Virus record (IMG/VR): IMGVR_UViG_3300029712_000001
Source of the DNA: a virus
DNA: 64,000 nucleotides
Reading direction: 5' to 3' (one strand)
Both the position numbers and the translations under genes were made by a program. Position 1 is the first letter of the stretch, and the number at the start of each line of letters is the position of its first letter. Shown here one piece after another: positions 3,126-53,240 of this stretch. The notes under the pieces were generated by a model. That model was given only the letters and a program-made list of their open reading frames with translations. It was not told the origin of the DNA and made no database searches.

Positions 3126-3258
3126 AATTTTATAGTATTTAATTGTTAAACATACGTGCATGAAGCACGTAACAAAGATCATGATTGTAAGGTGGAATAT
3201 AGGTGTGTTTATTTCCTATAGAAGAGAAGTATTTTCAGAAAAGACAGAAACAAAAAAA

Positions 3259-3294
3259 AGGTAGTGTTTTTTTTATTCTTTTAAAACACTACCT
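3259..3294 (-). terminator. intrinsic terminator hairpin (12-bp stem) downstream of the Bro-N gene
   Basis: AGGTAGTGTTTT (3259-3270) pairs with AAAACACTACCT (3283-3294). On the minus strand it is followed by a T8 run. Confidence 0.7.
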
Positions 3295-3304
3295 ATAAAT
3301 AAAC

Positions 3305-4189
3305 TCAAGAAAATTTGCCATATTTTAAAAATACATTTTTAAGTTTTCCTTTTATGCCATTGAGGGTCACTTCATATCCGGAGCCTGTCATGTAGATAGT
3401 TTGTTGATTAACCCTTTCGCCGGAATACTTATCTACAAAATATGATCTATATACACCATATCCTTTAGCTACAACATTACTGTACAACTCCCATTTTCCA
3501 AGACCGTTTCTAAACATAAACTTAGCTTCTTCAAGAAATGAACGTAAATTCTTTTCAGCGATGATAACACCATTCTGTTCTAACTTTTTGGCAATATCAC
3601 GAATCAGCCACATATTGTTATGGTCTACTTTCCTAAAAGACTCGGCAAATTCTACATCGGGCTTATGTTCTTCTATTGTTTTCAAGGCTTGTTGCTTCTC
3701 TGCCTCTGCCTGCGACTTTTCGGCTATAGCTTTTTGAGCAGCTTCATATTGATCAGCCCAGGCTCTTGCTGCATCTGCCGGATTAGAAAAGTCAGGGACC
3801 AAAATTCCCTTTCCACCGGAACTTGTTTTATATTCTCCTGTTTTACGAATAGAAGGAAGAACCTCAGATGTTATCCATCGTTTAAATCTCTTAGCAGATT
3901 CTAATTTTGAAGATAATATAAGAGAATATAAACCAGATTCATTAATTATTCTTATACTATCTATATATCTGGTTTTCAATATGGATTGATTCACGCCCCA
4001 TTGATTATCAGATACTTGCAAAAGTATGGAATCATCATCATCTACATGTCTTTTTACCGCATCTTTAGCATTTATATATCCAAGAGATTTAGCCACATCT
4101 GACGCCACAAACCAAACATCTCCTTTTGGATCTACAATAATTCTAAGCTCTCCAAAATCCGAACTTTCAAAAACAGAAACTTTATCCAT
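3305..4189 (-). CDS. Bro-N domain / KilAC (ANT-type) antirepressor-like protein
   Basis: The N-terminus FESSDFGELRIIVDPKGDVWFVASDVAKSLGY...INESGLYSLILSSKLESAKRFKRWITSEVLPSIRKTG matches Bro-N. The C-terminal module is shared with 38962..39921. The ORF track starts at 4270, but the start at M28 (4189) fits Bro-N better. Confidence 0.85.
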   Translation of the reverse strand: MDKVSVFESSDFGELRIIVDPKGDVWFVASDVAKSLGYINAKDAVKRHVDDDDSILLQVSDNQWGVNQSILKTRYIDSIRIINESGLYSLILSSKLESAKRFKRWITSEVLPSIRKTGEYKTSSGGKGILVPDFSNPADAARAWADQYEAAQKAIAEKSQAEAEKQQALKTIEEHKPDVEFAESFRKVDHNNMWLIRDIAKKLEQNGVIIAEKNLRSFLEEAKFMFRNGLGKWELYSNVVAKGYGVYRSYFVDKYSGERVNQQTIYMTGSGYEVTLNGIKGKLKNVFLKYGKFS

Positions 4190-4363
4190 GATAAAAAAAT
4201 AGGCCCAAAAGAGAATGTCAGATCCCACTATGACAAACCCTAATGAGCCAAAAATATCTTTCAACATCAAACAACCAGAGGTGGGATCTCGTTGTTCATT
4301 GTTTCTGGAACAAAGATAGGAACAGGATTTTAAATAACAAATATTTTAATACTTTTTAAATCA

Positions 4364-4393
4364 AATCAGGGCCCGCATCACTGCGAACCCTGA
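4364..4393 (-). terminator. imperfect hairpin between the HTH gene and the Bro-N gene
   Basis: ATCAGGG (4364-4370) pairs with CCCTGAT (4387-4393), and there is an inner CGCA/TGCG pairing. The U-tract is weak. Confidence 0.4.
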
Positions 4394-4475
4394 TCTACAC
4401 TAATCTAAACTAATACCATGAAAAACTTAAATCTAAAAACTAAAGAACACACAAATGTATGAAAATGTATGCTTT

Positions 4476-4673
4476 TCACAAAGAATCTGTATCCTGTTCT
4501 TTTGTGTGATTCAAGACATGGGATATAGTTCTGATACTTAATCCGGTTTGATTTCGTATCAGATTATAAATATAGGATTTTGAAACTACAGTTCTTAATT
4601 GACCTAAATCATTCATAATGTTTTTATACATAAGATGAATGCTGTTATTACGTTTGATGGTACTGATTCTCAT
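4476..4673 (-). CDS. small helix-turn-helix DNA-binding protein (65 aa)
   Basis: TGLSIRTISHVLNH resembles the recognition helix of LacI/GntR-type HTH domains. The gene is bracketed by hairpins. Confidence 0.5.
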   Translation of the reverse strand: MRISTIKRNNSIHLMYKNIMNDLGQLRTVVSKSYIYNLIRNQTGLSIRTISHVLNHTKEQDTDSL

Positions 4674-4826
4674 TTCCTACCGTTATTAGTTACGTCCGGT
4701 TCTTACTTTTTCCTATTTCTATAATCCCTTCCTGAAACTAATATTGCAAACTTAATAAAAATAATTCATAAACAACGAAAATCTAACTTTTCTTGTATGT
4801 TATTGATATACGTGCATATATAAGAA

Positions 4827-4852
4827 AAGTGAGACTTTCACAAGCCTCACTT
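4827..4852 (-). terminator. hairpin terminator after the 752-aa gene
   Basis: AAGTGAG (4827-4833) pairs with CTCACTT (4846-4852). On the minus strand it is followed by TTTCTT. Confidence 0.45.
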
Positions 4853-4897
4853 CCCAAATTATAACTATGAAAAAACTATATATATGTATACAAAAAA

Positions 4898-7156
4898 TTA
4901 CCTGCATTCTAATTTGTTAAGATCATCCAATTCAGACTTGCTTATGGTCATATCTTGCGTCAAGCCAGATCTGTTTTGGTATGGAGCGTAATCGGTTTCT
5001 ACTGTCTTAGCCTTCTGGGTAGAATCGTATTTCACCTCCGATTCGGTCCCTGTCAGATTTTGGTAGATAGAGCCGGAACTACTTTCGCTTACTTTAGACC
5101 ATATCTTATTACCTACTCTTATAAAATTATCATAAATACCTTCGGCTGTTATAACACCATCTTGCTCTACGATATTAGGGCCCGATTTTTCTTTTAACAG
5201 ATACGGGTGCCTGGTGTAAAAATAGTGTTCAAAATCATTCTCGGCATACGAAGGGTCATACCTATCCAAATAAAACAATTTTGATAAAAAAGGGTCGGTG
5301 CTGGTCATGCTATAATCAAACAACATCAACCTGTCTTTTCCAGATAAAGATAATTCTATTGATTTCAAAATATCAGGATCATCAGAAATAAGACCCAAAG
5401 ATGGACCAGATTTGAAGTCAAGATACTTATAGGCATTATCATATAATTTTGTTTTATGGAGTTTATTGTCAAGGTAATATTGGTATAAATCGAATAAGGA
5501 TAATGGGTTTTCGCTATCTTGTTTTTTGTTCATGTACCGACTAAATTCCCGATCCACATCCGCGTAAGAAACATCAAGTACCGCCGGGTGCCCAAACGCC
5601 ATCCTGGTCATTATCATGTCCTCCGTGTTCTGAGAATCCATGAACGATCTGACGTATTTTTTAATGGAATCCATGAGCGTATTATTATCTACGTTCCGTA
5701 CTTTCTCTTTATCCAAAACGCCGTTCTTAAAACAAGATTCAGGATATATTTTAGCAGGAAAGTGAGTTAGGTTGTGCTTGGCTAACACTGTTGATATTTG
5801 ATACATCTCGTTAAGATCATCTTTGCTGATCCTTTGATATAGATTATCTCCTACCTTAAGCAATGAATGTTTCTCAAATGCTTCTACTGGGTCTATATTT
5901 GATTCAGAATAAACGATATTCAAATTATCCATATACTCCGGCAATAATCCAAAATAATAGTCTGTACTATCACCAAGAACATCATCAATAGAAGATGCCA
6001 ACGTAGGAGCATAATTTACATCATTGTGCCAGGCCACATAAATATCAAGATCCAGCATCAAATTATCTATCTTATTCAAAGATTCTTCTGTGCCATCATA
6101 AGTTTCCGATGTCCCTATTATATCTATGCCAAACCACGTACAAGCCTCTTCTATATCCCATATCATGCTTCTTAAATCGGATTCGGTGTCGGCATTAACC
6201 CTATGTAAATAAGCTGATATACGAGCTCTTAGGAACTCTATTTTGCCAGGATTGTAATAAGACAGATCTTGTAGCTTAGACAAGGATCTTCTCTTGCCTT
6301 CTACCATATCATCCCCTTCTATGTTTATTACCGGAATCTTATTCGTAGATGAAAACTCATCAAACATAGATTCGGCAAATTCTTTATCAGAAACGAATTT
6401 CTCAACCAGTTCAGGGTATGAGTTTCTCAACGATTCAAAAGCAGATGAAAATTCAGAAAATTTTTTTATGCCGGCTACTGTTTTACGCATAGCATAATAA
6501 AGCTCAGAAGGATTATATGGTACTTTTTTACCAAATTGGTTAAACACTTCCTCCTTGTAAACAATAGGACCATACTGATAGTCAACAGACATAAAATAAT
6601 TATCTTTTTCCCTATCATGTTCGTTATTGGAATAATCCAATAACTTCCTCATGGATGTCGAAACTTCATTAAGAACAGAAGGATCAGATAAGATTCTACT
6701 TATCTCTGTTTCATTATACAAGCCTGATCTTCTTAAATTCTGCTCATTCAGTATCAAACTACCATCTACATAAAAATAATGAAGAATGATGTTGGATAAT
6801 GATGGTGCCGTATAAACACCATAGGTAGATAAAAGAAAATCTCTTACATCCTTAACATCCTGATCCGTTAGAGGATCGGCAAAATAAGTTTGACGCTTCA
6901 TATACGACAGCACGTCTTCTAAAAGAGGTTCACCATTGGAATCGGTATTAAACATCTCCCCTGGAGCCGGGTTATTCCAATGACCGTAATACGACAAAAA
7001 ACCAGGAGTGTAAGCCTTAGCCCATACCTGAAGGGCCCGCTCGCTGTTTCCTAATAATTTTAAGGCACTTTCGTAAAGAACGGAAGGCTCCCCGTTAGGA
7101 GCCTTAACCCGTTTTATTTCATTTTCCTTTTTTTCTATCTGACATTTGACACCCAT
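4898..7156 (-). CDS. large virion-associated protein of unknown function (752 aa)
   Basis: Long uninterrupted ORF. The N-terminal KAPNGEPSVLYESAL motif resembles N-terminal modules seen in phage polyvalent or internal proteins. This is from memory and was not searched. Confidence 0.6.
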   Translation of the reverse strand: MGVKCQIEKKENEIKRVKAPNGEPSVLYESALKLLGNSERALQVWAKAYTPGFLSYYGHWNNPAPGEMFNTDSNGEPLLEDVLSYMKRQTYFADPLTDQDVKDVRDFLLSTYGVYTAPSLSNIILHYFYVDGSLILNEQNLRRSGLYNETEISRILSDPSVLNEVSTSMRKLLDYSNNEHDREKDNYFMSVDYQYGPIVYKEEVFNQFGKKVPYNPSELYYAMRKTVAGIKKFSEFSSAFESLRNSYPELVEKFVSDKEFAESMFDEFSSTNKIPVINIEGDDMVEGKRRSLSKLQDLSYYNPGKIEFLRARISAYLHRVNADTESDLRSMIWDIEEACTWFGIDIIGTSETYDGTEESLNKIDNLMLDLDIYVAWHNDVNYAPTLASSIDDVLGDSTDYYFGLLPEYMDNLNIVYSESNIDPVEAFEKHSLLKVGDNLYQRISKDDLNEMYQISTVLAKHNLTHFPAKIYPESCFKNGVLDKEKVRNVDNNTLMDSIKKYVRSFMDSQNTEDMIMTRMAFGHPAVLDVSYADVDREFSRYMNKKQDSENPLSLFDLYQYYLDNKLHKTKLYDNAYKYLDFKSGPSLGLISDDPDILKSIELSLSGKDRLMLFDYSMTSTDPFLSKLFYLDRYDPSYAENDFEHYFYTRHPYLLKEKSGPNIVEQDGVITAEGIYDNFIRVGNKIWSKVSESSSGSIYQNLTGTESEVKYDSTQKAKTVETDYAPYQNRSGLTQDMTISKSELDDLNKLECR

Positions 7157-7182
7157 TGTAATTAACTTTTTTGCAAAGTTAA

Positions 7183-7677
7183 TTACAAAACCGACTTATA
7201 CAATGACGGATCCCAAATTCCTTCTATATAAATCTCCGGAAAACTCAAACTGCCATCACGAAGAGTGGTGACTTCCAAGCTGGGAATGTTGAAAACAGTA
7301 CTGGTATCACCAAACTCACCATTCAACTTGATAGCATTTCCGCTGTTATTAGCCTCATAATAAAAATAACAATAATTTTCATTAATACTTGGATCATATT
7401 CGTACCAATATGTTAGATCTTGTATATGATCTTCTATGTTACCAATTTTGTTTTCACCTAATATAAAAATACCATTATTGCTATGATTATAAACCATAGA
7501 TTCATAACCACCATAATTCCAATTACTATTAAACATTATGTAACTAACATCAGAATCATGATCTTTTAATACAGGTCCTATATGTATATGAATTTTATTA
7601 AACTGACATACATAAGGTCTTTTTCCTCCAAGCCTTTTTATATCTTCATTGGATAACTTATTATAACATCCTCCCAC
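7183..7677 (-). CDS. hypothetical protein (164 aa)
   Basis: ORF track. Tightly packed in the operon. Confidence 0.55.
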   Translation of the reverse strand: MGGCYNKLSNEDIKRLGGKRPYVCQFNKIHIHIGPVLKDHDSDVSYIMFNSNWNYGGYESMVYNHSNNGIFILGENKIGNIEDHIQDLTYWYEYDPSINENYCYFYYEANNSGNAIKLNGEFGDTSTVFNIPSLEVTTLRDGSLSFPEIYIEGIWDPSLYKSVL

Positions 7678-7716
7678 GAAATTATCCGCAGCATTAAAAA
7701 AATCTCCTTCTCATAC

Positions 7717-10700
7717 TCAACACTCCTTATTTAACTCATTTATCGAATCCGAATTATCAGAACCTTCTACGAGATTCTTATTCCTATCTATCTCTTCCTG
7801 GCTCATATTACTCATCATATTTTGTATTTTTCTACCAGATTGAGATAAAGAGCGGATGAATGCACTGGAACTTATCTTAACTCCAAGATCCGGTTTTGCC
7901 CTAAACGCTTCACCGGTACTGATATTATACAAATCATACACACCTGAGTTCATATAGAATTTATATATCCAGTTTCCACCAGCTTTTTTGTACCCTAATT
8001 TGGTTAACTCGACTACACTCATACCAAATTTAATGCCATTACGACCCATTATCTTCTCCGGTATAGGTTCTACCTTAGCCGGAACAGATGTATATGCTTC
8101 ATCACCGCCGTACAGGAAATAAGGGGTTGTCACCCTTGATATGTGAGTAAGCGGTTCTTCGGATATACGAGGCTCGTCTTTCGCAGCCTTATATTCTTCC
8201 CTTGGATTGGATATCCTAATAAAAGGATCGTATGTCAAAAAGGTTAAGCCGTATTCTACTTTATAACCTGATACGCCGTTAAGATCCCTTATAGCCTTAG
8301 TCGTATGCGAGTGATTGATGGTGTCTATACCATACCTTGATTCCATATCGGTCATAATACTATTAACCTCATCTCCCTCTACATAAACCTCTTCTCCTTC
8401 CGGGATAGAGGTTATGCCGGCAGCCCTTCTAAGTAGCCATAAAGTGACTTCAGCAATGTCAGAGAACTTATCTCCGTTCTTCCTATAGTTATCTACTCTT
8501 CCTTCTTCATATCCAGGTAATTCGATATTTCCTTTAACTTCGACATTTGTTCTGGATTGTCCTTTGCCTTCTCCATCTCCCTTTTTATCGCCATCTTCCT
8601 CAGTGCGTACTGCACCGCCTTCTGCACTTCCTTCTTTTCCATCATTTAAAATATTATCTGATTCTGACTCTATAGACTCCACGACAGCATCATACTCTGG
8701 TATGCCGCTAAGGAAATCTGCTACGTTATTCAAAAACTCTATTTTTTCCTCGTTTGTCATATCAAGGCTTTCCACGGGCTCCCATATGGCAGGCAAGTTG
8801 TTTGATTTTATTGCAGTAGAAACATCTTCTATAGTTTGGTTGTCCACCGTAGGCAAAACTTTAGAAACCAAACTATTGATATCAGATTCCATTTTTTCTA
8901 CTTCCTCTTTTGTGCCATATTCTTTTAGGGTATCCATGCCATTGACTCTAAGAGAATAATTCAAAGCCTTGCTTGGAACAAAATTAATATATTTCAAAAA
9001 GTTTTTCAACTCTGATATAATTTGTTCGTCAGATCTTGGCCCAACATAATCAACCACCACCTGATCTGTTTGAGAACGAAGCCAAGAAACGTATTCTTCT
9101 AAGATCTTACCACCTTTACTGGAAGGAGTGGATATTTTATCACCTACTGTTCCTTTAGGTTCTAATCCCATTTCTTCCTTAAGGCTTTTAGGATTACCTC
9201 TCTCACGAAGAAACCTCAAATCACCTCCTACAATCTTCCTTGCTATAAAATCAAAAATATTAGCATAAGACGGCAATCCTTCTTTTTCTATATGAGATTC
9301 TATTTCGTTTAACATAAGAGAGAAGTTTTTCCTGGAGGTACGCTTCTTGCCAGGTAAAGACTGCGTAGCTTGTGCCGCAGGAGCCGGCTGAGCTAATGGC
9401 GCCGGCTGAGTCTCCCGGGCAGCCCCTTCCTCTGGCATTTCCTCTTCATAAACTTCCACATCTTCTACCTTAGAAGTAACGGTCTTACCCTCATCAGAGA
9501 AAGGAAGATCATCCTCTATAAGCGATTTAGGTCTGGAAGATGATTTGCCAAACTGAATCCTGATCTTAGGAGCGACAAACATCTCACCTTCGAAATCTAT
9601 TCCAGATTCTACTTCAGACGTCACAATGTCTTTCACATTCCTGCTTTCATCTTCTACCCACTTAACAACATCAGGAACCGTAGATAATTTTTCTATAGCC
9701 TCACGAGCTTTTCTAAGCCCTGAAATAGGATTCAAATACGATACTTGATACGAAGCCGGATCAAGACCTAACTTGGTTAGATACGCATTAAGATCTTGTA
9801 TGTCATCTTGACCCATCTGTAGCAATTCAGAATCACCAGATTCAAGCAGCATATCTATAAAAGACATCCATTTCTGCCCTTCCTCTGATTCTACAGAACG
9901 TAGGCTAACTGGGAAAAGATAATTAAGACCGTTTTTACCTTTGATGACGACTACCGGAACTCTTACATTTTTGTAATTATTCCCCTTGTCATTTAATATA
10001 GAATAAGCAAATGGGAAGCCTGTGTATTTAGATCCGTTCTTAAGCACGACTTTGCCATTTAATACATATCCAACATCAGATACTTTTTCAGCACCTTTTT
10101 CGGTAATAGGGAGATTTTCTATCTGGCCATATCCTTGACCGTTCACCTTCATGTTAAACACCGGTCTTCCGGGAAGGGTCTGGGCAACAACATGCGTGCC
10201 GACGCCGATGGTAGCCGACCGGCCGGCGTCCTTCTTCCACTTGTTAAAAGCCGTTCTTCTTATTTTACTTATACCATCTATGCCTCCTGTATCAGCTTTT
10301 ACAACAGAAACGAATCTGTTCCCACTCATGACCTTGATAACCATATTGGACACCAGTTTATTCTCAGCAGATTCTATTCTTTTTTTATCGCCGGACTGAA
10401 CAGCATCATTGTATTCGGCAAAAAGAGACTGATTATAAGTATCATTTACATCTATTTCGAGATTAACCTTATCTCCTTTTTTCAAAGAAGATAATGCTTC
10501 CTGATCTATTTTATCTACCTCATTCTCTCCGAATCCGACACCCGTTCTGTACGGAACCAATTCATCTGAATCAAGACGCTTATAAACCAAAGAATAGGAA
10601 TTACCCACGTCCTGAATAGACACGTCTGTGTAACGGTTAAGAACACGAGCCGATTCTTTGTCTATAGACCATCTCGCATGATAAGGCAGTTCAATTATAG

Positions 10701-26802: not shown

Positions 26803-26865
26803 TTGAAAAAAAAAATATATCAAAATGAATACTCAATGAGGGAAAAGCTGAAGTTAGTGTAAACA

Positions 26866-26938
26866 ATGAAATAATGGATTTGAACCATCGACCTATACTT
26901 TAAAAGAGTATCGCTCTATCCATCTGAGCTAAATTCGA
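26866..26938 (-). tRNA. tRNA-like gene, anticodon UUU (Lys), with a defective acceptor stem
   Basis: On the minus strand: TA-GCTC-AGATGGATA-GAGC D-arm, ATACT-CTTTTAA-AGTAT anticodon arm and GATGG-TTCAAAT-CCATT T-arm. The acceptor TCGAATT/ATTTCAT forms only 4 of 7 pairs. No CCA is encoded. Confidence 0.55.
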
Positions 26939-27008: not shown

Positions 27009-27081
27009 ATGAAAATATTGGATTCGAACCAATGAAAAGTATTATTACAGAATACCGCGTTATCCACTACGCTAATTTTCG
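27009..27081 (-). tRNA. tRNA-like gene, anticodon GUA (Tyr), class-I (short variable arm), with a C1·A72 mismatch
   Basis: On the minus strand: CGAAAAT-TA-GCGT-AGTGGATA-ACGC-G-GTATT-CTGTAAT-AATAC-TTTTC-ATTGG-TTCGAAT-CCAAT-ATTTTCA. Six of seven acceptor pairs form. No CCA is encoded. Confidence 0.7.
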
Positions 27082-34215: not shown

Positions 34216-34293
34216 CTTTGTAACTGTTTGTCACAAAGATAGCAAAAGAGATTTAATCATGGGCTTTCAAAGTGAGCGTAAAATGGCAGATAA

Positions 34294-37815: not shown

Positions 37816-37816
37816 C

Positions 37817-37984
37817 TTATTTATTTTTTAATATTTCGAATACGTATATCCAACTCGACAAAAATACTATTGGGCAATACATTGTCTCTACCAAACTCGC
37901 ATCTCCTTTAAATTGCCTGATTGACCAAACAATCATAGATATAATAACACCAAGCAAGTATATAAATAGAACTACTTCCGTCAT
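37817..37984 (-). CDS. unlisted 55-aa two-TM membrane protein, translationally coupled (ATGA)
   Basis: Manual translation gives MTEVVLFIYLLGVIISMIVWSIRQFKGDASLVETMYCPIVFLSSWIYVFEILKNK. Its ATG overlaps the TGA of 37981..38877, and it fills an otherwise empty 165-bp gap. Confidence 0.5.
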   Translation of the reverse strand: MTEVVLFIYLLGVIISMIVWSIRQFKGDASLVETMYCPIVFLSSWIYVFEILKNK

Positions 37985-45300: not shown

Positions 45301-46906
45301 GTCCTTGTTCTTTGACAGCAGCTTTAGCCTTGTTATTAGCATCATCTTGACTCACGGTAGATGTGAAAGGAGCACCAACAACATCTTGTTCGGTTACAGT
45401 AATCTTAGACCCTACCTGACCTTCATTACAATCGTTTTTGGTAAATTCTTCACTGTATTTACCAGTCCACGTACAATGGCCGTCCCGGTTGGCTATGGCC
45501 TGGCCCTGCTGCTCGACGGCAGCCTGAGCGAGCGCGTTAGCCGCCTCCTGGCTTTCGTATGAAGTAAAAGGACCACCGGTTACATCATCTTGGTCTACTG
45601 TTACCTGCGAACCTACGCCTTCTCCGTCGCAATTGTCTTTTGTGAATACCTTGCTATATACACCAACAAATTGGTTTTTATCTATGCAAGTGCCTTTCTT
45701 ATTTGCAAGATCCTGTTTCTGTTCTTCCATAGCAGCCTGAGCGAGCGCGTTAGCCGCCTCCTGGCTTTCCCTTGATACAAAAGCATCCGGGTATCCAGCA
45801 AGATCCTTTTCAGTTAAATCGACAAAGCTTCCGGTCTGAGATTCAGCATCGCAATCATTTTTCTGAACACGAGCCGAAGCCTTTCCGACGAAATAATTTG
45901 GATCAGTAACGCATTCTCCATTCAGGTTTGCCTGATCCTGACCATTTTTCTCTACATCATCAAGAGCTTTCTGATCAGCATCTTCTTGACTTACGTCTGA
46001 TGTGTATTTACCGGCTTCTACCGTGTAAGTGTAAGGTGCTCCGATAAACCCATCTTCGCAGTCATTCTTATAAAATACTTTCGACTTCTCTACGTTATAC
46101 CATAAATTAGTTTCACAGGTGCCATGCTCATTAGCATACCCTGGACCTTCAGCTTCCAAGGCTTCCAAAGCCTTCTGATTAGCATCCTCCTTAGAAACAG
46201 AAGAAGAGAAACGGCCGGCTTCTACAACGTACTCTACCATAGATCCAACTTCAGTCACCTCACAATCTGTCTTTTGGAACATTTTGGATTTCCTGTCGTT
46301 GTACCATTTTATGGTATTGCAAGTGCCATGAGAATTAGCATAGTCTTGACCTTTGGCATTCAACTCGGCTTCAGCCTTACGGTCAGCATCCTCTTGGCTT
46401 ATGGAAGAAGAGAACTGCCCGGCTTCGATCGTCATCGTAACCAAACTTCCTTCTTCGGTATCAGGATCGCAGTCGTTCTTTCTAAACGACTTTGATTTCT
46501 TGACATTGTACCATAATATGGTTATACAACGACCATGCTCATTAACCCAGTTCTGACCATTTTGCTCAATGTCTCTCATAGCCTTGTCATCAGCATCAGA
46601 CTGAGATATGATAGACGTGTATTTTCCGGCCTCAACAACATACTCAAGCTCTTCCCCTTTCTCTGTTTCAGGATTACATCCTTCTTTTGTGAAAAGAGCT
46701 GACTGTCTTTTATTTCTATAAACTACCTGTTCTTTTTTTTTATGAACTAACGTATATTCTTCAGATACGCTACCGTCCCTGGAAGACACCCTTATCTTGA
46801 CACTTCTGTTGGCACCAGTATCATTTTCATCAAAGTAAATATTAACCTTACTGTTAAGACCGCCTTCTTTCTTATCTATGTTCGCCCAACAATTATCTAC
46901 TTTCAT
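42395..46906 (-). CDS. giant repeat adhesin / fibre protein (1503 aa) with 12 tandem Cys-containing modules and two C-terminal BACON-like domains
   Basis: Twelve copies of a ~71-aa module end in ...SQEDAD.KA......GQ..AN..G.C. The C-terminus carries SRSGDIVFVQNESGKTVTLSITQD and SRSGTVTLKQNESGKTVNITVNQEG, which are BACON-like. Confidence 0.8.
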   Translation of the reverse strand: MKVDNCWANIDKKEGGLNSKVNIYFDENDTGANRSVKIRVSSRDGSVSEEYTLVHKKKEQVVYRNKRQSALFTKEGCNPETEKGEELEYVVEAGKYTSIISQSDADDKAMRDIEQNGQNWVNEHGRCITILWYNVKKSKSFRKNDCDPDTEEGSLVTMTIEAGQFSSSISQEDADRKAEAELNAKGQDYANSHGTCNTIKWYNDRKSKMFQKTDCEVTEVGSMVEYVVEAGRFSSSVSKEDANQKALEALEAEGPGYANEHGTCETNLWYNVEKSKVFYKNDCEDGFIGAPYTYTVEAGKYTSDVSQEDADQKALDDVEKNGQDQANLNGECVTDPNYFVGKASARVQKNDCDAESQTGSFVDLTEKDLAGYPDAFVSRESQEAANALAQAAMEEQKQDLANKKGTCIDKNQFVGVYSKVFTKDNCDGEGVGSQVTVDQDDVTGGPFTSYESQEAANALAQAAVEQQGQAIANRDGHCTWTGKYSEEFTKNDCNEGQVGSKITVTEQDVVGAPFTSTVSQDDANNKAKAAVKEQGQAIANSKGNCENMTVYTGHYSKRFVPECEACHKGVEMEVTAEMVNGSPVTSTESQDAADAEARRIVEEGGQAYVNKNGNCTPLSTDPVWEDVVPEELRCNEGKSQKKQHDTNECSETHNQERWVDGGNKVCSWTGHYSETFQKNDCEIPDSGTEVEVSEADVEGNPFTSFVSQEDADNKAKEAVKAQGQAIANQKGKCRFVGVYSKQFTKDNCGSCHHGVPMSVTQDMVGGPFYSNESQEEANRLAQEAVEAQGQAYVNKNGTCEMDNTDPVWVDSEPLETKCEGGKSYKKQVNTNECYGGADERWVEGGDKVCTWTGTYSKQFTKQCADGGVGSKVTIDQDDVTGGPFTSTVSQEDANSKAQAAVEQQGQALADAQGTCTWTGKASKVFTRNNCGSCQHGSSVTVTQDQVGGPFTSNISQADANKKAQDAVNSQGQAVANKNADCLPDSTTPSWSDTGSTRCDGCTSQKQQRDTNPCSSSYNDTRWVNGGGESCTDWSYYGTGDCVGHTQYNAYRDSCSGSIDRQYSVSCRNCCNCGSYGSWQENGCNGTKTKFIRYDDCGNSDTKEEYVIGSCGYAPYEFQFHDGRTSKSRSVTGESQDIKEVIISTKNDSYIGYSVKSKPSWCSVDYRDQTSESMKAVVTLSANTTSSSRSGDIVFVQNESGKTVTLSITQDVAVTYEFSTNQSTWNADANGGTNNSYLCIQLKSKKNGSKIGYTVSSKPSWVTEVTEKPSGVNCPVLSGYDYSFVIISSANSSSSSRSGTVTLKQNESGKTVNITVNQEGKAEAKPVPAHITLKNGSWATYRKNNVSYNPGAGKCIAGFEWTSDENGNIRIYTCDIKVVDADYREISGATISIGTTTQRKQSGSSCSYFGAVMGGILAGYVHSGDENGDTTWYIRTINVSYEGKVYKTATVRQYEKQNISKKGGIFNVYNESPASYNFIVDGAECGDENGTLKYAYSQMDLNPA
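43900..46730 (-). repeat. in-frame tandem coding repeats (about 213-nt period) inside the 1503-aa gene
   Basis: The protein periodicity is described above. A 36-nt exact DNA repeat agcctgagcgagcgcgttagccgcctcctggctttc occurs at 45521-45556 and 45734-45769, 213 nt apart. Confidence 0.8.
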
Positions 46907-47673
46907 TCACTAACCCTCCATCTTAAATTTTTGGGAGTTGTACTTACGTTGATTACCTCAGAAGATCCATCGGAATCAAGATCAACAACATCCTTGTCCA
47001 GGTGAATTTCCTCCTTATCCACAGACTCGCATTCAACTATTTCAATAACATAATCTTTTATATTACTTTCTATACTTAACTGCGTGCTTGTTTCATCACC
47101 CTCAACCTGTTCAAATTCCTTATCCAATTTGATGTAAGGAACAACCTTTCCGGGTTGATAGATAGGAATCAGTACACCATTTATAGTTATATTCTCATTA
47201 ACTTCATCCCCATCCTCATTATCAGGCATGGAAACAATCATCGAAACCTGGAACGTGTCTTCAAGACCCGGATCACCAGGGAAACCATAATCAAGCCTAA
47301 TATCATTGACGTCAATATTAAGACTGGAAGCGGTGGTAAATGCTTTTATGACACCCTTTATATCTTTCTCACCTGTAATAAGGGCATTGATAGAAGCGGC
47401 GTTGGTAGTAATAAGGATCTGCTTGTCTCCACCAGATATAGGGAACTCCAGCCTGCTAACCGAGACTTCTGTGATCTTAATGCCTTTTTGCCTGAAAGTA
47501 ATAGCTTTCATACTTTCAGTATCGGATTTCTTCACAATTCGGATAGTGATCCTGTCTTCCCTTCCTTTCCAAGATGGAGCATCGAAATTCATTTTATCAC
47601 GACCGACACCTTCCTTCTTGTCCGAGGTAAGCCAAGAACCATCATCCATCTTATATATTCTTTCTTTGCTCAT
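46903..47673 (-). CDS. Ig/BACON-like repeat protein (256 aa)
   Basis: ATGA overlap with the 1503-aa gene. Repeated beta-rich segments, including NFDAPSWKGREDRITIRIVKK...ITFRQKG. Confidence 0.6.
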   Translation of the reverse strand: MSKERIYKMDDGSWLTSDKKEGVGRDKMNFDAPSWKGREDRITIRIVKKSDTESMKAITFRQKGIKITEVSVSRLEFPISGGDKQILITTNAASINALITGEKDIKGVIKAFTTASSLNIDVNDIRLDYGFPGDPGLEDTFQVSMIVSMPDNEDGDEVNENITINGVLIPIYQPGKVVPYIKLDKEFEQVEGDETSTQLSIESNIKDYVIEIVECESVDKEEIHLDKDVVDLDSDGSSEVINVSTTPKNLRWRVSE

Positions 47674-47688
47674 AATAACCCTCCTTTA

Positions 47689-48075
47689 TTAAAGTGTCAG
47701 TTCCCATTCAACGCCATCATCTACCACAACCTGTACCGTAGCCGTACCACCTGTGGCTTCAAATGTTATGTCAGTAGGAATAACGTCAAATATCTCTTGT
47801 ACCCCTACACATCCTAAACCACAGATAATGTCCTTAAACCATTCCTCTTTAGCATATTTTTTAAGAACCTCTTTAAAGAACTCACGAAGCCAATCTGAAT
47901 CAATAGATTCCTTAAGTATGGTTTCTATTATCTCCTTAAGCCAAGATTCGTGCATTTCCTCTTTTAGAATCTCTTTAATAAGCTCGATAATAGTTTCTTT
48001 ATCTAACTTATCAGAAGGCACAGAGCCATCAACGAGATTACCCCCGCATATAAATCCTTTGCATTTTTCTGCCAT
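47689..48075 (-). CDS. hypothetical protein with internal helical repeats and a C-terminal Ig-like segment (128 aa)
   Basis: Helical repeats KEILKEEMHESWLKEIIETILKESIDSDWLREFFKEVLKKYAKEEWFKDI, then FEATGGTATVQVVVDDGVEWELTL. Confidence 0.55.
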   Translation of the reverse strand: MAEKCKGFICGGNLVDGSVPSDKLDKETIIELIKEILKEEMHESWLKEIIETILKESIDSDWLREFFKEVLKKYAKEEWFKDIICGLGCVGVQEIFDVIPTDITFEATGGTATVQVVVDDGVEWELTL

Positions 48076-48091
48076 TTCTTATCCTCCTAAA

Positions 48092-48517
48092 TTAACAATG
48101 GAACCCATAAGAACTATTTGCCTCTTCTCGGTACACGACCCTCACTTCAGCAAATTCATCTTGTTGACACATATCCCGGCAGAACCTAACAGTACGGCCC
48201 TGGACTTTATACATATCAGAAGGTACGACACCTCCGCAATAAGATACAAGCAAAATCTCTGCCGGATCCTTCTTTAGAACCACATGAGAAGTACCGTCAA
48301 ATACTTCCGTATTGACAGATCCACTTACGTTAATAGCCCTTGAAACGTATTTAGCTAAATTAGCCAAAGCCCTGTTTAAAGGCATACCATGATACAAACC
48401 AGCTTCTTCTATAGTTTCCCCATCATAGAATATTTTAGAAGAAGGAATATCGCAATGATGCGGGCGTTCGCACCCACCATGACTGCCAAAACAACCGTTG
48501 TTACCTGTTATTGCCAT
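48092..48517 (-). CDS. Cys/His-rich small protein (141 aa)
   Basis: ORF track. Contains GCFGSHGGCERPHHCDIPS. Confidence 0.5.
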   Translation of the reverse strand: MAITGNNGCFGSHGGCERPHHCDIPSSKIFYDGETIEEAGLYHGMPLNRALANLAKYVSRAINVSGSVNTEVFDGTSHVVLKKDPAEILLVSYCGGVVPSDMYKVQGRTVRFCRDMCQQDEFAEVRVVYREEANSSYGFHC

Positions 48518-48806
48518 TATTGCTTAAAATATTTATTTTTTGTTTTAAAAATTCTATTTCCCCATCCTGATATTCCATACGGCATATCATTGCATTGATT
48601 AAAGCCGTAAGATCAGATTTCTGAGCCAGACTGAAGTAGCCAGCGTTAATGCCGTCAGCGCAGTACACGCAGTTCGTGCAGGTGTATCCGTCCGGGCATG
48701 GCACCGGCGTTTCGTCCACATGTGGAACATATACGTGTTTACCACTTAAGTCCTTACCAATTTGTGCACTCTTTTCCATTTTGAAGTTGTTTTTCAAGTT
48801 GTTCAA
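48501..48806 (-). CDS. Cys-rich small protein with a C-terminal coiled coil (101 aa)
   Basis: PCPDGYTCTNCVYCADG, followed by EIEFLKQKINIL. Confidence 0.5.
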   Translation of the reverse strand: MNNLKNNFKMEKSAQIGKDLSGKHVYVPHVDETPVPCPDGYTCTNCVYCADGINAGYFSLAQKSDLTALINAMICRMEYQDGEIEFLKQKINILSNNGNNR

Positions 48807-49173
48807 CCCTTTGTTTTAGAAGCGTATTTTCTTCAACTATCCTATCCAAAAACTTATCTATGTTTTCAAAAACCAGTTCTATATTATGCATAACCTCATT
48901 ATAAGGCATACCTGGAGTTAATTTGGATATGAATGTCTTGCATCCTGTATAATGAATGCAATGATCGCTTAAATGACCATACGGGCAATCGCATTCTTTT
49001 GGAAGAATCTCGCAATTGTCCGTACAGTCATTACATGGATCAGACCCGATACAAATATTAGATCTCAGAATATCAGGTCTGTCATCTTTACAAGTGTTAC
49101 ATGAGTTCATGACTTTCTTTTTTTTTGGTGCAAGATAATAATTTTCATTCACACCATCACAATGAGAAGTCAA
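48754..49173 (-). CDS. Cys-rich small protein with a C-terminal coiled coil (139 aa)
   Basis: CNTCKDD...CNDCTDNCEILPKECDCPYGHLSDHCIHYTGC, followed by LLKQRVEQLEKQLQ. Confidence 0.5.
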   Translation of the reverse strand: MTSHCDGVNENYYLAPKKKKVMNSCNTCKDDRPDILRSNICIGSDPCNDCTDNCEILPKECDCPYGHLSDHCIHYTGCKTFISKLTPGMPYNEVMHNIELVFENIDKFLDRIVEENTLLKQRVEQLEKQLQNGKECTNW

Positions 49174-49859
49174 TCAATGTATTCTATGTTATTATTCGCA
49201 TTTTTTTTCTTTTTAAGCCTGTATTCTTTTCCGTACTTTTTTTGACACTCTTTGCACATATACTGATAGCCATGACCCTTTATGTAATAAAATTCAGATA
49301 CAGATTTCACCTCGTTGCATGCATTACATTTTTTTGCAGTCCTATCTCTCTTATAAGGCAATATCCCATTATCGTTCCAGTCCGATAAAGCTTTGTCGTA
49401 TGCATTTCTTGCATCTTCAACATCACAAAACACACCTAAATGATATTGTATCTTATTTATCTGAATGCAAGCACCATATTTATTTATCTTCTCAAAGTAA
49501 TGCACTCCCCTTCCGTATTTTGAAACCTTTGACCTACATATATTCTCTCTATTTGTGAGTTTTCTTAAATTACTAAGATTATTATTTAACTTATTATTGT
49601 CTATATGATCTATTACCAAATCATCTTTTACCTTACCATTAAAAGACTCATATACTATCCTATGCACCCTCATTTTGCTCTTTCCACTCTTAACACTTGA
49701 AAGCGTCACCTCCTCGTAACCATATATATTAATACGAGTCTTCATTACAGTTCCTTTTTTAATATTGAAAATAATACCAGTATCACTTACTGCATATATA
49801 CCTTCATACCCAACAACATTAATGACATTCATATAGCATTTATCGTATTTATACGGCAA
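49170..49859 (-). CDS. HNH homing endonuclease with NUMOD4-like, HNH_3, AP2 and zinc-ribbon modules
   Basis: GYEGIYAVSDTG is NUMOD4-like. VHRIVYESF...VIDHIDNNKLNNNLSNLRKLTNRENI is the HNH motif. GVHYFEKINKYGACIQINKIQYHLGVFCDVEDARNAYDKA is AP2. CNACNE...CKECQKK is a zinc ribbon. The ATG start is probably at 49832. Confidence 0.85.
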   Translation of the reverse strand: MPYKYDKCYMNVINVVGYEGIYAVSDTGIIFNIKKGTVMKTRINIYGYEEVTLSSVKSGKSKMRVHRIVYESFNGKVKDDLVIDHIDNNKLNNNLSNLRKLTNRENICRSKVSKYGRGVHYFEKINKYGACIQINKIQYHLGVFCDVEDARNAYDKALSDWNDNGILPYKRDRTAKKCNACNEVKSVSEFYYIKGHGYQYMCKECQKKYGKEYRLKKKKNANNNIEYID

Positions 49860-49913
49860 ATATAATAATTACTACGATTAAAATAATAAATTATTCGGAT
49901 TTGTTTTAATGTA

Positions 49914-49972
49914 ATTCAGATTACGAGGCGAACAATTGCCATTGTTCGCATTACCGCCGAAACGAGCAGCCA
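49914..49972 (-). repeat. DGR template-repeat-like (TR) non-coding copy of the 3' end of the 687-aa gene
   Basis: It aligns over 59 nt with 50378-50436. All 8 mismatches are adenines on the coding strand of this copy, and they fall within six AAY codons. Confidence 0.75.
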
Positions 49973-50126
49973 ATTCTTTTTAACCTTTTTCTCAACCGTT
50001 ATTTGCTATTTCAGAGGTCAGATCCCAATGTAAAACTTGTTAGCAGACTAACGGATTTCATTGAATAGATTTTTATTGTTTATAATGTTAACTATCTCTG
50101 TTGTCTAATGACATTGCAAATGTATG

Positions 50127-50201
50127 TATAATATTTTATAGCTACAAAACAATTTGTATTAAATATTTTAAATTTTTGTTTTGTGGCTATAAAATATTAT
50201 A
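50127..50201. repeat. 26-bp inverted repeat (large hairpin/cruciform) between VR and TR
   Basis: tataatattttatagctacaaaacaa (50127-50152) against the reverse complement of 50176-50201, with 25 of 26 positions matching. The spacer is 23 nt and AT-only. Confidence 0.8.
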
Positions 50202-50213
50202 TTAACAAGATAC

Positions 50214-50275
50214 GGCTGCGCCGTGATATAGTATATAAGGCTGCGCCTTAGCGCTGCGCTTATGATGGCTGCGCC
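50214..50275. repeat. four GC-rich 9-mers (GGCTGCGCC x3, GCGCTGCGC x1) immediately downstream of the VR-bearing gene
   Basis: Copies at 50214-50222, 50239-50247, 50251-50259 and 50267-50275. They sit within a local GC island in AT-rich DNA. Confidence 0.7.
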
Positions 50276-50293
50276 ATCAATGGGTTGCACCCA

Positions 50294-52357
50294 TCAAACC
50301 TGCGGTTGACTGACGTCTAATAACAACTGGGCAAGGCCGCAATTGCTGCGAGACGTATGAGAAGCGGCGTAATTCGCATACAGAAAACGAGGCGAACAAT
50401 AGCCATGGGGCGCATAACCGCCGAAACGAGCAGCCACTCTGGACTTTATACCAACAGATGAAGCCCAGTAGCAGTTGTCCCATGTATAAAAACATTCTCC
50501 TGAATTATAATTTCCTCCCTTTTTACCCTTCCATCCGGTATAAGGGATACGATGTAAAACATGACCATCTCCTAAATTTTGGGTAGTTGCTATCTTCTTA
50601 TATTTGGATTCAAAATCAAAAACCTCACCATTATTTATAGTAGACCTTTTCTCATATGTCCATTTCTTTTGATCTGGCTCTATATAAATATCAATAGTAT
50701 TACCTATTCGAGTGACATTAGGATCATTTAAACAAGTCCCTACCTGTTCGTATCCTCCTCCACAATACCTAAAGACATCTCCAGACAAATTCATGCCATC
50801 GTACAAAGACATCCTTAAGATAACTTCCAAATCAAATTCTGCCGGTTCGTCATTTTCGTTTAAGGCCGATATAGTGCCGGTCATTTCCTTAAACACAATA
50901 ACATTCATATGACCTTCAACCATACTCTTGGCTCCCTGGACGTTCTTATACCAATATTTTCCTCCATAAAAATCGAACTCCAATCCTTCCTCTATTCCTG
51001 CCTCAAATGCAAAAGAAGCCGCCATCTGGCTTTCCATGCACTGTTCTTTAGGATATTCTGAATTTATGAGGTAAGAAAAATGAGTTTTTTTAGTAGGTTC
51101 ATAATGTATAATAGAAGAATTTGTAGCCCATGATCCATACAACCATGTCTCTTCTCCTTTTTTACGATACTTTACACCTCCGTATTTGCGATAATTAACA
51201 TCATTACCTACTCCGGAGTTACTTGATATCCCTGATCCAAAAGTATCTGGATTAGCTAAGTGTTTAGTACCGTACAGCATTTCAAGGTATATGATATAAG
51301 CATTCAAGGTCAAAAAACCACCTTCAGAAAAAGGATAAGAAGATTCAGGATCTACGTTATTAACCCTCGAATACTTAGCTATATTGATTTGATTTACATC
51401 ATTGCTTCTCGGATAAGTTCTTCCATTTAAAAACATCGTGCAGGCGTTACCAACTCCGGCTCCGGATTTACAATTTGTTTCTCCTTCATACAAGAAAAAG
51501 AAAGATCTTGCCTTGGAGTCTACTGTACATACCGGTCCAGGAGATAAGGCTGTGGGCGGAAGCACAGGGCACGTCTGGCGCAGGTCAAGTCCGTCCAGCA
51601 TAGGAACCGTGTCTGCGTCGTACACACCAGACCATATTTTCCCGCTTTTACCAACTACCTTATCAGCTACATACAGACTCTTGCTACATCCTAAGAATAT
51701 GCTATAATTCTTTGAAGTAGTCTCCCAAGGTCTTAAAATCCTTACCTCTGATCCTGATACATTATAAAGTTTTTGACCAATACCATACTCTTCGTAAAAA
51801 GCCTTGGCGTCAAATGCTCCGGCATCACAATACTTATTTTTATGACCGTTATCCAAATACAGTTCCACATCGCATTCGGCTCTCATTTCCTCGGTTATAC
51901 CTACCGTAGGAGCAAAATCTCCGTTTTCAAATCTAAGGAGATTATTCTTACGAAGCTTCCCGACCGGACGCACTTTGTCTCCGGTATTTTGAGTCATGTC
52001 TATAAGGTAAAAATCCCAAGAAGGGAGAAGGCTTTTGTCGCCAACTGATTCCGTGGCTTCTGGAGGAAGTTGGTCCTCAGCCCAAGCGGATGCCGATCCT
52101 GAAGCACCTTCTTTAAGAACATTGAAAGTATTACCATCAGACAAAACAAAAGGCTCAGATTCCTCCCCTTTCTTCGATAAAAACTTTTCCCTTTTACCAA
52201 CTTGATTAACGACGATGTTCTTCTTAGCCTTATTCCCTTCATCGGAAATAGTGTAATTCAAAGTCGTATCAAGACCTTCATTTATTTCAGAAAACACCGA
52301 CACCAGTTTATCATTCTCACCTTCTGTCGGATTAAATTTTACGTTGCTCATTTTCAA
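50294..52357 (-). CDS. putative DGR target protein / receptor-binding protein (687 aa) with an N-terminal BACON-like domain and a C-terminal variable region
   Basis: The N-terminus KLVSVFSEINEGLDTTLNYTISDEGNKAKKNIVVNQVG is Ig/BACON-like. The C-terminus YWASSVGIKSRVAARFGGYAPHGYCSPRFLY resembles C-type-lectin-fold DGR variable regions. The VR lies at 50378-50436. Confidence 0.75.
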   Translation of the reverse strand: MKMSNVKFNPTEGENDKLVSVFSEINEGLDTTLNYTISDEGNKAKKNIVVNQVGKREKFLSKKGEESEPFVLSDGNTFNVLKEGASGSASAWAEDQLPPEATESVGDKSLLPSWDFYLIDMTQNTGDKVRPVGKLRKNNLLRFENGDFAPTVGITEEMRAECDVELYLDNGHKNKYCDAGAFDAKAFYEEYGIGQKLYNVSGSEVRILRPWETTSKNYSIFLGCSKSLYVADKVVGKSGKIWSGVYDADTVPMLDGLDLRQTCPVLPPTALSPGPVCTVDSKARSFFFLYEGETNCKSGAGVGNACTMFLNGRTYPRSNDVNQINIAKYSRVNNVDPESSYPFSEGGFLTLNAYIIYLEMLYGTKHLANPDTFGSGISSNSGVGNDVNYRKYGGVKYRKKGEETWLYGSWATNSSIIHYEPTKKTHFSYLINSEYPKEQCMESQMAASFAFEAGIEEGLEFDFYGGKYWYKNVQGAKSMVEGHMNVIVFKEMTGTISALNENDEPAEFDLEVILRMSLYDGMNLSGDVFRYCGGGYEQVGTCLNDPNVTRIGNTIDIYIEPDQKKWTYEKRSTINNGEVFDFESKYKKIATTQNLGDGHVLHRIPYTGWKGKKGGNYNSGECFYTWDNCYWASSVGIKSRVAARFGGYAPHGYCSPRFLYANYAASHTSRSNCGLAQLLLDVSQPQV
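50378..50436 (-). repeat. DGR variable-region-like (VR) segment
   Basis: Coding-strand codons TAT, CCC, CAT, TAT, TTT and TAT correspond to AAT, AAC, AAT, AAT, AAT and AAT in the TR-like copy. Confidence 0.75.
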
Positions 52358-52992
52358 AAATCAAATTTGCATTCATCAACAACAGGCTCGCATTTGGTAT
52401 TTTCATTAACCCATTTCATGCCCTCTTCTTCCAGTATCTTCTTAGCCTTTTCATTGGCATCATCAACGCTAATGAAAGACGTTACGGTACCGGCGTATAT
52501 CCTCCTATATTTCTCAGGAGCCTTCCATCCTTCCTTACAACGCTTACTAAACCAACCATGTTGATCTTCGTTGTAATAAACGGTTTTACATACTCCAGAT
52601 TCGTTAGCGGCAGCCTGCCCTTCTTGCTCAAGAATCTTCGCAGCTTCGTAGTTGGCTATTTCGGTACTGAACTTAGACCATACACGCCCGGCCTCTACCA
52701 CGTGATGTGTGGGTTGTTCTTGTTTTTGACCATCAGGACAATCATTTTTAAAGAAATCCCCTTCCTGTCTTGTGTTATAATATACCTCGCAACATCCACC
52801 TACTTTATTAGCATACAACGGACCTTCTTTATCCGCAAACTCTTCCGCTTTCCTATCTGCATCATCTTGGCTTATATCCGAACAAAATTCAGCCTCATGA
52901 ACGATAAACGTTTCTCCAGAACCAAGATCTTCCGGACAGTCCGATTTCTTGAAAGCTTTTCTGTATTCTTTGTTGTAATACATCTTTTTCAT
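52354..52992 (-). CDS. three-module paralog of the 1503-aa repeat protein (212 aa)
   Basis: Three copies of the same Cys-containing module: ...DISQDDADRKAEEFADKEGPLYANKVGGC, ...EQEGQAAANESGVC and ...VDDANEKAKKILEEEGMKWVNENTKC. ATGA overlap with the DGR target gene. Confidence 0.7.
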   Translation of the reverse strand: MKKMYYNKEYRKAFKKSDCPEDLGSGETFIVHEAEFCSDISQDDADRKAEEFADKEGPLYANKVGGCCEVYYNTRQEGDFFKNDCPDGQKQEQPTHHVVEAGRVWSKFSTEIANYEAAKILEQEGQAAANESGVCKTVYYNEDQHGWFSKRCKEGWKAPEKYRRIYAGTVTSFISVDDANEKAKKILEEEGMKWVNENTKCEPVVDECKFDF

Positions 52993-53240
52993 GACAAGAT
53001 CTTATTAAGTTCTTCTTTGAATTTCTGAATCTCGTCCGGGCACAACCCGCATTTCCCTTCACATACGATTCTTCTCATACGATCTATTTTAAGAACTGTA
53101 TCCATATCAGGCTTGATACCTACCTTATACTTATGATATTGTAGATACTGATCAGCCTTACATGCTATAAAACGATCAGCACACTCACATAAGTAAGATG
53201 AAGGGAAAAGAATTTGCTGTGTACTTCCGGTAGCTGACAT
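52989..53240 (-). CDS. Cys-rich small protein (83 aa)
   Basis: ORF track. Contains CECADRFIAC and CEGKCGLCPDE. Confidence 0.5.
   Translation of the reverse strand: MSATGSTQQILFPSSYLCECADRFIACKADQYLQYHKYKVGIKPDMDTVLKIDRMRRIVCEGKCGLCPDEIQKFKEELNKILS

Follow-up and report, generated by a model that had tools for sequence, protein, structure and literature searches.

We analysed a 64,000-nt stretch of viral DNA (IMG/VR record IMGVR_UViG_3300029712_000001; hereafter the window) in which the 3′ end of a gene for a tail-fibre or receptor-binding protein (RBP) is repeated in the non-coding DNA downstream. The original prediction took the two copies for the variable repeat (VR) and template repeat (TR) of a diversity-generating retroelement (DGR). 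This holds for the origin of the element. It does not hold for a working element: the window contains no reverse transcriptase (RT) gene, an HNH endonuclease gene occupies the RT position, and the TR is truncated. The element is very probably a relic of the DGR of Epsilonunovirus (epsilon crAss-like phages) in which the HNH gene replaced the RT gene and the last third of the template. The DGR family and its frequent loss of RT have already been published; the exchange of RT for an endonuclease seems not to have been described.

The repeat pair and its adenine bias

Realignment reproduced the predicted repeat. The two copies of the direct repeat, at 49914-49972 and 50378-50436, are 59 nt long, are spaced 464 nt from start to start, and are 86% identical. 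At all eight mismatches (50380, 50385, 50386, 50401, 50407, 50409, 50410 and 50416 on the + strand), the non-coding copy has T on the + strand, corresponding to A on the coding (minus) strand. Based on 12 adenines among the 59 template positions, the hypergeometric probability of 8/8 mismatches at A is 2.2e-7. As predicted, all six AAY codons of the template copy (AAT, AAC, AAT, AAT, AAT and AAT) are changed in the gene, where they read in frame TAT, CCC, CAT, TAT, TTT and TAT. The 5′-terminal 19 nt of the repeat have exactly two occurrences in the window, where zero are expected by chance. No second VR was found in the window.

Homology to an annotated relative (see below) left the positions of both copies in place and revised their extent. 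The VR is 96 nt long (50342-50437, minus strand; coordinates transferred from the annotated VR of OR575929) and encodes ...ARFGGYAPHGYCSPRFLYANYAASHTSRSN. The template, first described as 59 nt, is a stump comprising the first 60 of the 96 nt of the TR (49914-49973, minus strand). The target gene (50294-52351, minus strand) was similarly adjusted: it encodes 685 aa from its ATG, the 687-aa ORF of the original prediction opening at an upstream TTG.

The VR was also compared with the ancestral full TR, using as reference the common variant with TTGTTCG and GCCGCT. Of the substitutions in the VR, 13/13 are at TR adenines (P = 1.5e-9), and five of these (50371, 50359, 50353, 50352 and 50346) are opposite the deleted part of the TR. 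The eight mismatches are thus not the full set of variable positions: the window VR carries these five further A-type changes, and some 25 adenine positions vary in the population. Because the stump could not template the five distal substitutions, the VR must have been written by mutagenic homing from the full TR before part of the latter was lost.

The intact cassette of crAssE-Sib and the breakpoints

All large ORFs of the window are on the minus strand, and its gene content is that of a crAss-like phage. In a megablast search of GenBank phages with window positions 46900-53000, the sole record matched was OR575929, the closest phage there. This is crAssE-Sib, a 151-kb phage of the human gut, and the match covers 88% of the query at 96% identity. 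At the orthologous site, OR575929 is annotated with a putative tail-fibre gene carrying a 96-nt VR and a 16-nt initiation of mutagenic homing (IMH) site, a 96-nt TR with the related site IMH*, and a 465-aa 'retron-type reverse transcriptase'. The window RBP gene is 96% identical in DNA to its counterpart there (WOZ57270.1, 'putative tail fiber protein'). The crAssE-Sib RT matches Pfam RVT_1 at 2.2e-10 and contains the motifs YADD and GTPTSP, the latter conforming to GxxxSP. It is the single annotated RT in the 151-kb genome.

The crAssE-Sib DGR has been published for the proposed genus Epsilonunovirus (Viruses 2024;16:513, PMC11054128). Together with the adenine-specific VR hypervariability of relatives, this annotated and published locus bears out the interpretation of the window repeats as a VR/TR pair. 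According to the same study, the RT of other Epsilonunovirus genomes is 'fragmented or deleted', and myDGR misses the Epsilonunovirus DGR even when it is intact, the RT having GxxxSP and not GxxxSQ (PMC11054128). An HNH or homing endonuclease at the DGR site is mentioned nowhere in PMC11054128, in which extra ORFs are termed 'hypothetical proteins'. It follows from the GxxxSP motif that standard DGR finders would miss a DGR of the crAssE-Sib type even in its complete form.

The breakpoints were located using blastn. Two blocks are collinear: window positions 46900-49184 correspond to 3001-5283 of the crAssE-Sib locus, and 49914-53000 correspond to 6811-9897. Between them, a 729-bp cassette (49185-49913, minus strand) has no counterpart in the intact allele and stands in for 1527 bp of crAssE-Sib: the last 36 nt of the TR, IMH*, the downstream spacer, and all of the RT gene except its last 15 nt. 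The homology of the TR stump to crAssE-Sib stops exactly at 49914. On the other side of this breakpoint, the two phages have in common the RBP, the position of the VR, the IMH, and the spacer between RBP and TR. Over its 60 nt, the stump is identical to the TR of crAssE-Sib except for one C/T polymorphism (TTGTTCG in the window, TTGCTCG in crAssE-Sib). Within the stump, positions 49928-49949 form a perfect 9-bp palindrome, GCGAACAAT-GGCA-ATTGTTCGC, in the TTGTTCG variant; the TTGCTCG variant has one mismatch.

The IMH at the 3′ end of the VR (50326-50341, minus strand; TGCGGCCTTGCCCAGT) is intact and identical to the annotated IMH of crAssE-Sib. A motif search identified it as the sole copy in the window, and no IMH*, or second IMH-like site, was found anywhere in the 64 kb. 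A six-frame scan of the window revealed no RT-like ORF with a YxDD motif, and tblastn with the crAssE-Sib RT detected no homologue there (best E 1.9).

Distribution among relatives

The RBP sequence retrieved 244 relatives from IMG/VR. The closest 80 (93-98% aa identity) were analysed together with crAssE-Sib and the window, for a total of 82 sequences. The RT position is occupied by an intact RT in 48 of these and by the HNH gene in 17 (16 of the 80 closest loci and the window). In another 12, the RT is frameshifted or partly deleted. The remaining five have neither gene; three are cut by contig ends, and two, L040 and L081, are true losses. Parallel decay alleles were found in L010, L017, L040, L045, L061 and L081.

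A full TR of their own is retained by 54 loci. Adenines of the TR account for 679 of the 720 VR/TR mismatches there (A>T, 329; A>C, 277; A>G, 73). The TR is nearly invariant, and the VRs are distinct in 78/81. The hypervariability that the original prediction had expected was thus observed when the check was run as a population comparison of relatives. One protein cluster of the RBP at 90% identity has 21,205 member sequences, as is expected for a protein with a hypervariable tip.

With the HNH gene in the RT slot of roughly a fifth of close relatives, this abundant phage lineage of the human gut is naturally polymorphic for the presence of RT. Comparing its RT-plus and RT-minus members could reveal how much a phage gains from a DGR and whether a VR can be supplied in trans.

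Other arrangements were also observed in these relatives. In L014 and L068 (IMG/VR), a different insertion downstream of the RBP gene replaces the TR, with the junction ...ATTATAAACAA/GGTGACTATATACCAC... (the slash marks the breakpoint). A 3′ fragment of RT is left in both: residues 424-465 in L014 and parts of residues 277-465 in L068. The RBP gene contains a second peak of diversity at window positions 51090-51250 (minus strand; residues ~367-420), where per-column gene diversity is 0.11-0.15 as compared to ~0.03 nearby, without gaps. This peak is unrelated to the TR, and a repeat of its sequence was not found. Allelic divergence, or selection on a surface loop, is the probable cause.

Proposed order of events

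In DGRs, cDNA synthesis is primed in the spacer RNA just 3′ of the TR, and homing occurs via IMH and IMH*. The ancestral layout of the window element would have been that found in about 60% of close relatives today: an RBP gene with VR and IMH, a spacer of ~370 nt, a TR with IMH*, and RT. In such an element, RT would copy the TR RNA into cDNA with misincorporation at adenines, and the cDNA would replace the VR. Each rewriting would re-randomise ~25 positions (those of 12 AAY codons plus a single isolated adenine) in the C-terminal, ligand-binding part of the RBP. The window VR would have been written in this manner by the full TR before its truncation. Later, the 729-bp HNH/NUMOD4 cassette would have replaced 1527 bp, leaving the final 15 nt of the RT ORF.

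Two features set the direction of the exchange as RT to HNH: the distal A-type changes in the VR and the ending of the HNH ORF in the last 15 nt of RT. The opposite direction, replacement of an HNH gene by RT, was rejected on the same grounds, as the A-type changes of the VR are opposite the missing TR and the HNH ORF ends in RT sequence.

An element lacking RT, the priming spacer and IMH* would neither make cDNA nor home it in cis. The window VR should therefore now be ordinary coding sequence, and it is probably frozen and no longer diversified. As the priming spacer and IMH* are needed in the established DGR mechanism, the TR stump would be non-functional even if RT were supplied in trans. 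A perfect adenine-specific VR/TR signature is accordingly no proof that a DGR is active: in the window, it has persisted after both the enzyme and a third of the template were lost.

The HNH endonuclease allele

The HNH gene (49170-49832, minus strand; ATG at 49832) encodes 220 aa plus a stop. The protein matches Pfam HNH_3 at 1.2e-15 and NUMOD4 at 2.1e-6, and matches PHROG HNH endonuclease families with values down to 2e-28. A motif scan identified a Bacteroides-type −7 element, TATATTTG, inside the cassette (49857-49864, minus strand), 25 nt upstream of the HNH ATG. The last 5 codons of the ORF with the stop (49170-49184, GAATACATTGATTGA, EYID*) are what is left of the RT gene at its 3′ end, and the RT stop codon is used. 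Just upstream, a poly-A tract near the 3′ end of the HNH gene (window 49195-49215; loci L009 and L067) has 7, 8 or 9 A depending on the copy, which shifts the frame of the last ~10 codons. The fusion of HNH to the RT 3′ end is thus incidental, as the frame is shifted in other copies.

Homologues of the HNH protein at ≥96% aa identity occur on ~31 IMG/VR contigs, all at the DGR site and preceded by a truncated TR. Beyond these, identity drops to ≤46%, in homologues from unrelated contigs. The endonuclease gene also decays, as in L114 HNH residues 164-220 are all that is left. Two junction haplotypes exist: type A, that of the window, reads ...CTGAAT/TACATTAAAAC, and type B reads ...CTGAATGCGAATAA/AATAAATCC. 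In type B, an exact 11-nt direct repeat derived from the TR, AATGCGAATAA, lies on both sides of the cassette (loci L028 and L046). L040 looks like the result of a deletion between the AATGCGAATAA repeats that removed the HNH gene too. Imperfect direct repeats, AAAACAAATCCGAATAAT and AAAAAAAATGCGAATAAT (49191-49208 and 49890-49907), lie at the two ends of the window cassette.

We compared the flanks of HNH and RT alleles. On the left side, Fst was ~0 in every 200-nt bin, the nearest bin being 92-292 nt from the junction and the last ~92 nt not being sampled. The alignment of the right-hand flank was unreliable (pi ~0.2) and was discarded from the Fst analysis. No two HNH loci are closely related, all pairs differing by at least 44 substitutions in 2.5 kb. 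These data are consistent with transfer of the cassette from genome to genome through recombination in co-infected cells, the behaviour typical of homing endonuclease genes. Specifically, the endonuclease would cut the intact allele in co-infected cells, and its gene would be copied in during repair.

The window gene resembles the free-standing HNH homing endonucleases of phages, such as the T4 Mob proteins and the I-HmuI family, in several respects. It encodes an HNH_3 and NUMOD4 protein of ~220 aa, has its own promoter-like element, and shows a presence/absence polymorphism at one fixed locus that is unlinked to the flanks in a recombining phage population. In contrast to these endonuclease genes, which insert between or within genes, it replaces 1.5 kb of resident DNA, namely RT and the end of the template. 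A second difference is that the cleavage specificity and homing of the window gene are putative.

Stability of the VR and alternative explanations

The exact 685-aa RBP, including its VR, is present on at least six ENA/JGI contigs, and the contig analysed here is recorded in four samples. The latter is a scaffold of 134.8 kb in ENA (ERZ28636696, VISC19-1_SAMEA5814041 scaffold_28) that matches the window at 100% identity along 22 kb. Recurrence of the exact VR suits a stable sequence. Using the window VR as an exact 'barcode' yielded 0 matches in IMG/VR. Closely related HNH genomes with different VRs, which would be a sign of diversification after the loss, were not found among the relatives. 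Mapping of reads to the window genome is more likely to reveal a fixed VR than hypervariability.

Several points weigh against a frozen relic or limit its interpretation. First, direct inspection covered 64 kb of a ~135-kb genome, and an RT could lie elsewhere in it. Second, the recurrence of the identical VR might stem from a single donor or from repeated assembly of the same data. Third, non-A mismatches between VR and TR number 1.1 per locus in HNH genomes and 0.8 in RT genomes (p = 0.23), providing no positive signature of freezing. Moreover, the VRs of the 17 HNH genomes all differ and are as adenine-specific as those of RT genomes. The Fst of ~0 leaves the age of the exchange in the window lineage not estimable. 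Finally, the endonuclease activity and the cleavage site of the HNH protein are putative. An excess of non-A mismatches in HNH genomes, seen at first, was an artefact of unequal choice of the reference TR; it disappeared when one rule was applied.

The alternative that best survives these data is that the VR is still diversified in trans. In this scheme, the RT and TR-derived cDNA of a co-infecting RT-positive relative would rewrite the VR, making the DGR a resource shared at the level of the population. Consistent with this, the IMH and the hairpin cluster (see below) are intact in the window, the VRs of all 17 HNH genomes are different and adenine-specific, and the free recombination of RT and HNH alleles implies frequent co-infection. 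However, the VR diversity of HNH genomes is equally explained by entry of the cassette into backgrounds that were already diversified, given the Fst of ~0 and the absence of close HNH flanks. The window VR is also unchanged across the contigs and samples noted above. Moreover, at a non-A polymorphic site, the VR shares the haplotype of its own TR stump in 15/17 HNH loci, a concordance similar to that between VR and TR in RT loci (45/48; p = 0.6); this does not separate the two classes, but it would fit writing in cis before the loss. Overall, we consider rewriting in trans unlikely. It is also improbable that the HNH gene is a selfish element that targets the DGR cassette, at the 3′ end of the TR or in RT, and drives at the expense of RT while the VR is served in trans; the DGR would then be a 'public good' and the homing endonuclease a cheater.

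A DGR that works in cis, with an RT encoded outside the window and the 60-nt copy as its complete template, is very unlikely. Some DGRs have RT genes remote from their targets, and about half of the genome lies outside the window. Nevertheless, the template is a truncation of a 96-nt TR from which IMH* and the spacer are gone, and the five A-type changes beyond the stump could not have been templated by this copy. In addition, the fully sequenced relative has one RT, located at the DGR locus, where the window has none. Finally, an ordinary segmental duplication or a remnant of gene conversion, whose adenine mismatches arose by chance without a retroelement, would accord with the shortness of the repeat (59 nt) and the lack of an adjacent RT, but is effectively refuted by the probability of the 8/8 mismatches (2.2e-7), the adenine bias in relatives with a near-invariant TR (679/720), and the RT and IMH/IMH* at the orthologous site in relatives, including the annotated one.

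The target protein

The RBP had no match in Pfam and none among PDB sequences (phmmer). The AF2 model of its C-terminal 235 aa alone had a pLDDT of 53; modelling of the full-length protein with 37 homologues gave a pLDDT of 80.7 and a pTM of 0.82. Among 350,542 PDB chains, the best structural neighbour of this model was TaqVP (5vf4), the DGR variable protein of Thermus aquaticus, at a weak match (Foldseek E 0.086; TM 0.45 on the target). The RBP differs from TaqVP in its large extra N-terminal part, and the two share ~10% sequence identity. Matches in BFVD were strong (E 3e-26 to 1e-13) and were to models of phage receptor-binding and tail-fibre proteins, several from crAss-like phages. These matches, together with the tail-fibre annotation of the crAssE-Sib orthologue, uphold the earlier assignment of the VR to the C-terminus of a receptor-binding protein.

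More distant homologues of the RBP, including P0092, P0127 and P0150, are ~53% identical and often 908-1013 aa long. The contigs carrying them are 386-606 kb long and bear the names Bacteroides sp. ET336 and Candidatus Phocaeicola faecipullorum; these homologues thus probably lie inside bacterial chromosomes, in prophages or other elements.

Structured elements around the VR and comparison with BPP-1

Five short GC-rich stem-loops, most with GCA triloops, overlap and follow the RBP stop codon (50212-50294, minus strand; DNA fold z −2.6). They include ATGGGT-GCA-ACCCAT, GATGGC-GCA-GCCATC, AAGGC-GCA-GCCTT and ACGGC-GCA-GCCGT. The cluster is kept in crAssE-Sib and in the related loci compared. 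The DGR of BPP-1 is known to require a hairpin/cruciform; the cluster may therefore be a candidate target-recognition structure of the DGR.

Between the VR and the TR, a repeat search identified a 26-nt AT-rich inverted repeat (50127-50201, minus strand) that is 96% complementary, in a region with an RNA fold z of −4.5. It likely either terminates transcription of the RBP gene or forms a structured leader on the TR transcript. In L081, a more distant locus, the hairpin is kept with a compensatory change (GCCAC...GTGGC as compared to GCTAC...GTAGC). A Bacteroides-type −7 element, TACATTTG, lies upstream of the TR (50117-50124, minus strand; motif scan). On the minus strand, the TANNTTTG motif occurs at a frequency of 0.8 per kb in the same type of scan.

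The element resembles the BPP-1 DGR (mtd VR, TR, avd, brt) in its adenine-specific transfer from TR to VR in the C-terminal ligand-binding region of a tail-fibre protein, in the IMH at the 3′ end of the VR, and in the GC-rich stem-loops downstream of the VR. It differs from BPP-1 in four respects: no Avd-like gene was detected, the RT of the crAssE-Sib family has GxxxSP in place of GxxxSQ, the target is more like TaqVP than Mtd, and the window system is incomplete. With respect to Avd, the small neighbouring ORFs had no Pfam or PHROG match, and no such gene is reported for crAssE-Sib. Avd is not universal among DGRs.

Other differences and similarities to crAssE-Sib

Both TnpB insertions of crAssE-Sib appear to be absent from the window. 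Specifically, the two genes (IS605 OrfB-type; OR575929 58986-60125 and 64190-65413) have no room in the corresponding window gaps, 37816-37980 and 34216-34293. An Rfam search of the window returned nothing beyond two tRNA genes. These encode tRNA-Lys(TTT) and tRNA-Tyr(GTA), at 26865-26938 and 27009-27081 on the minus strand, as in crAssE-Sib.

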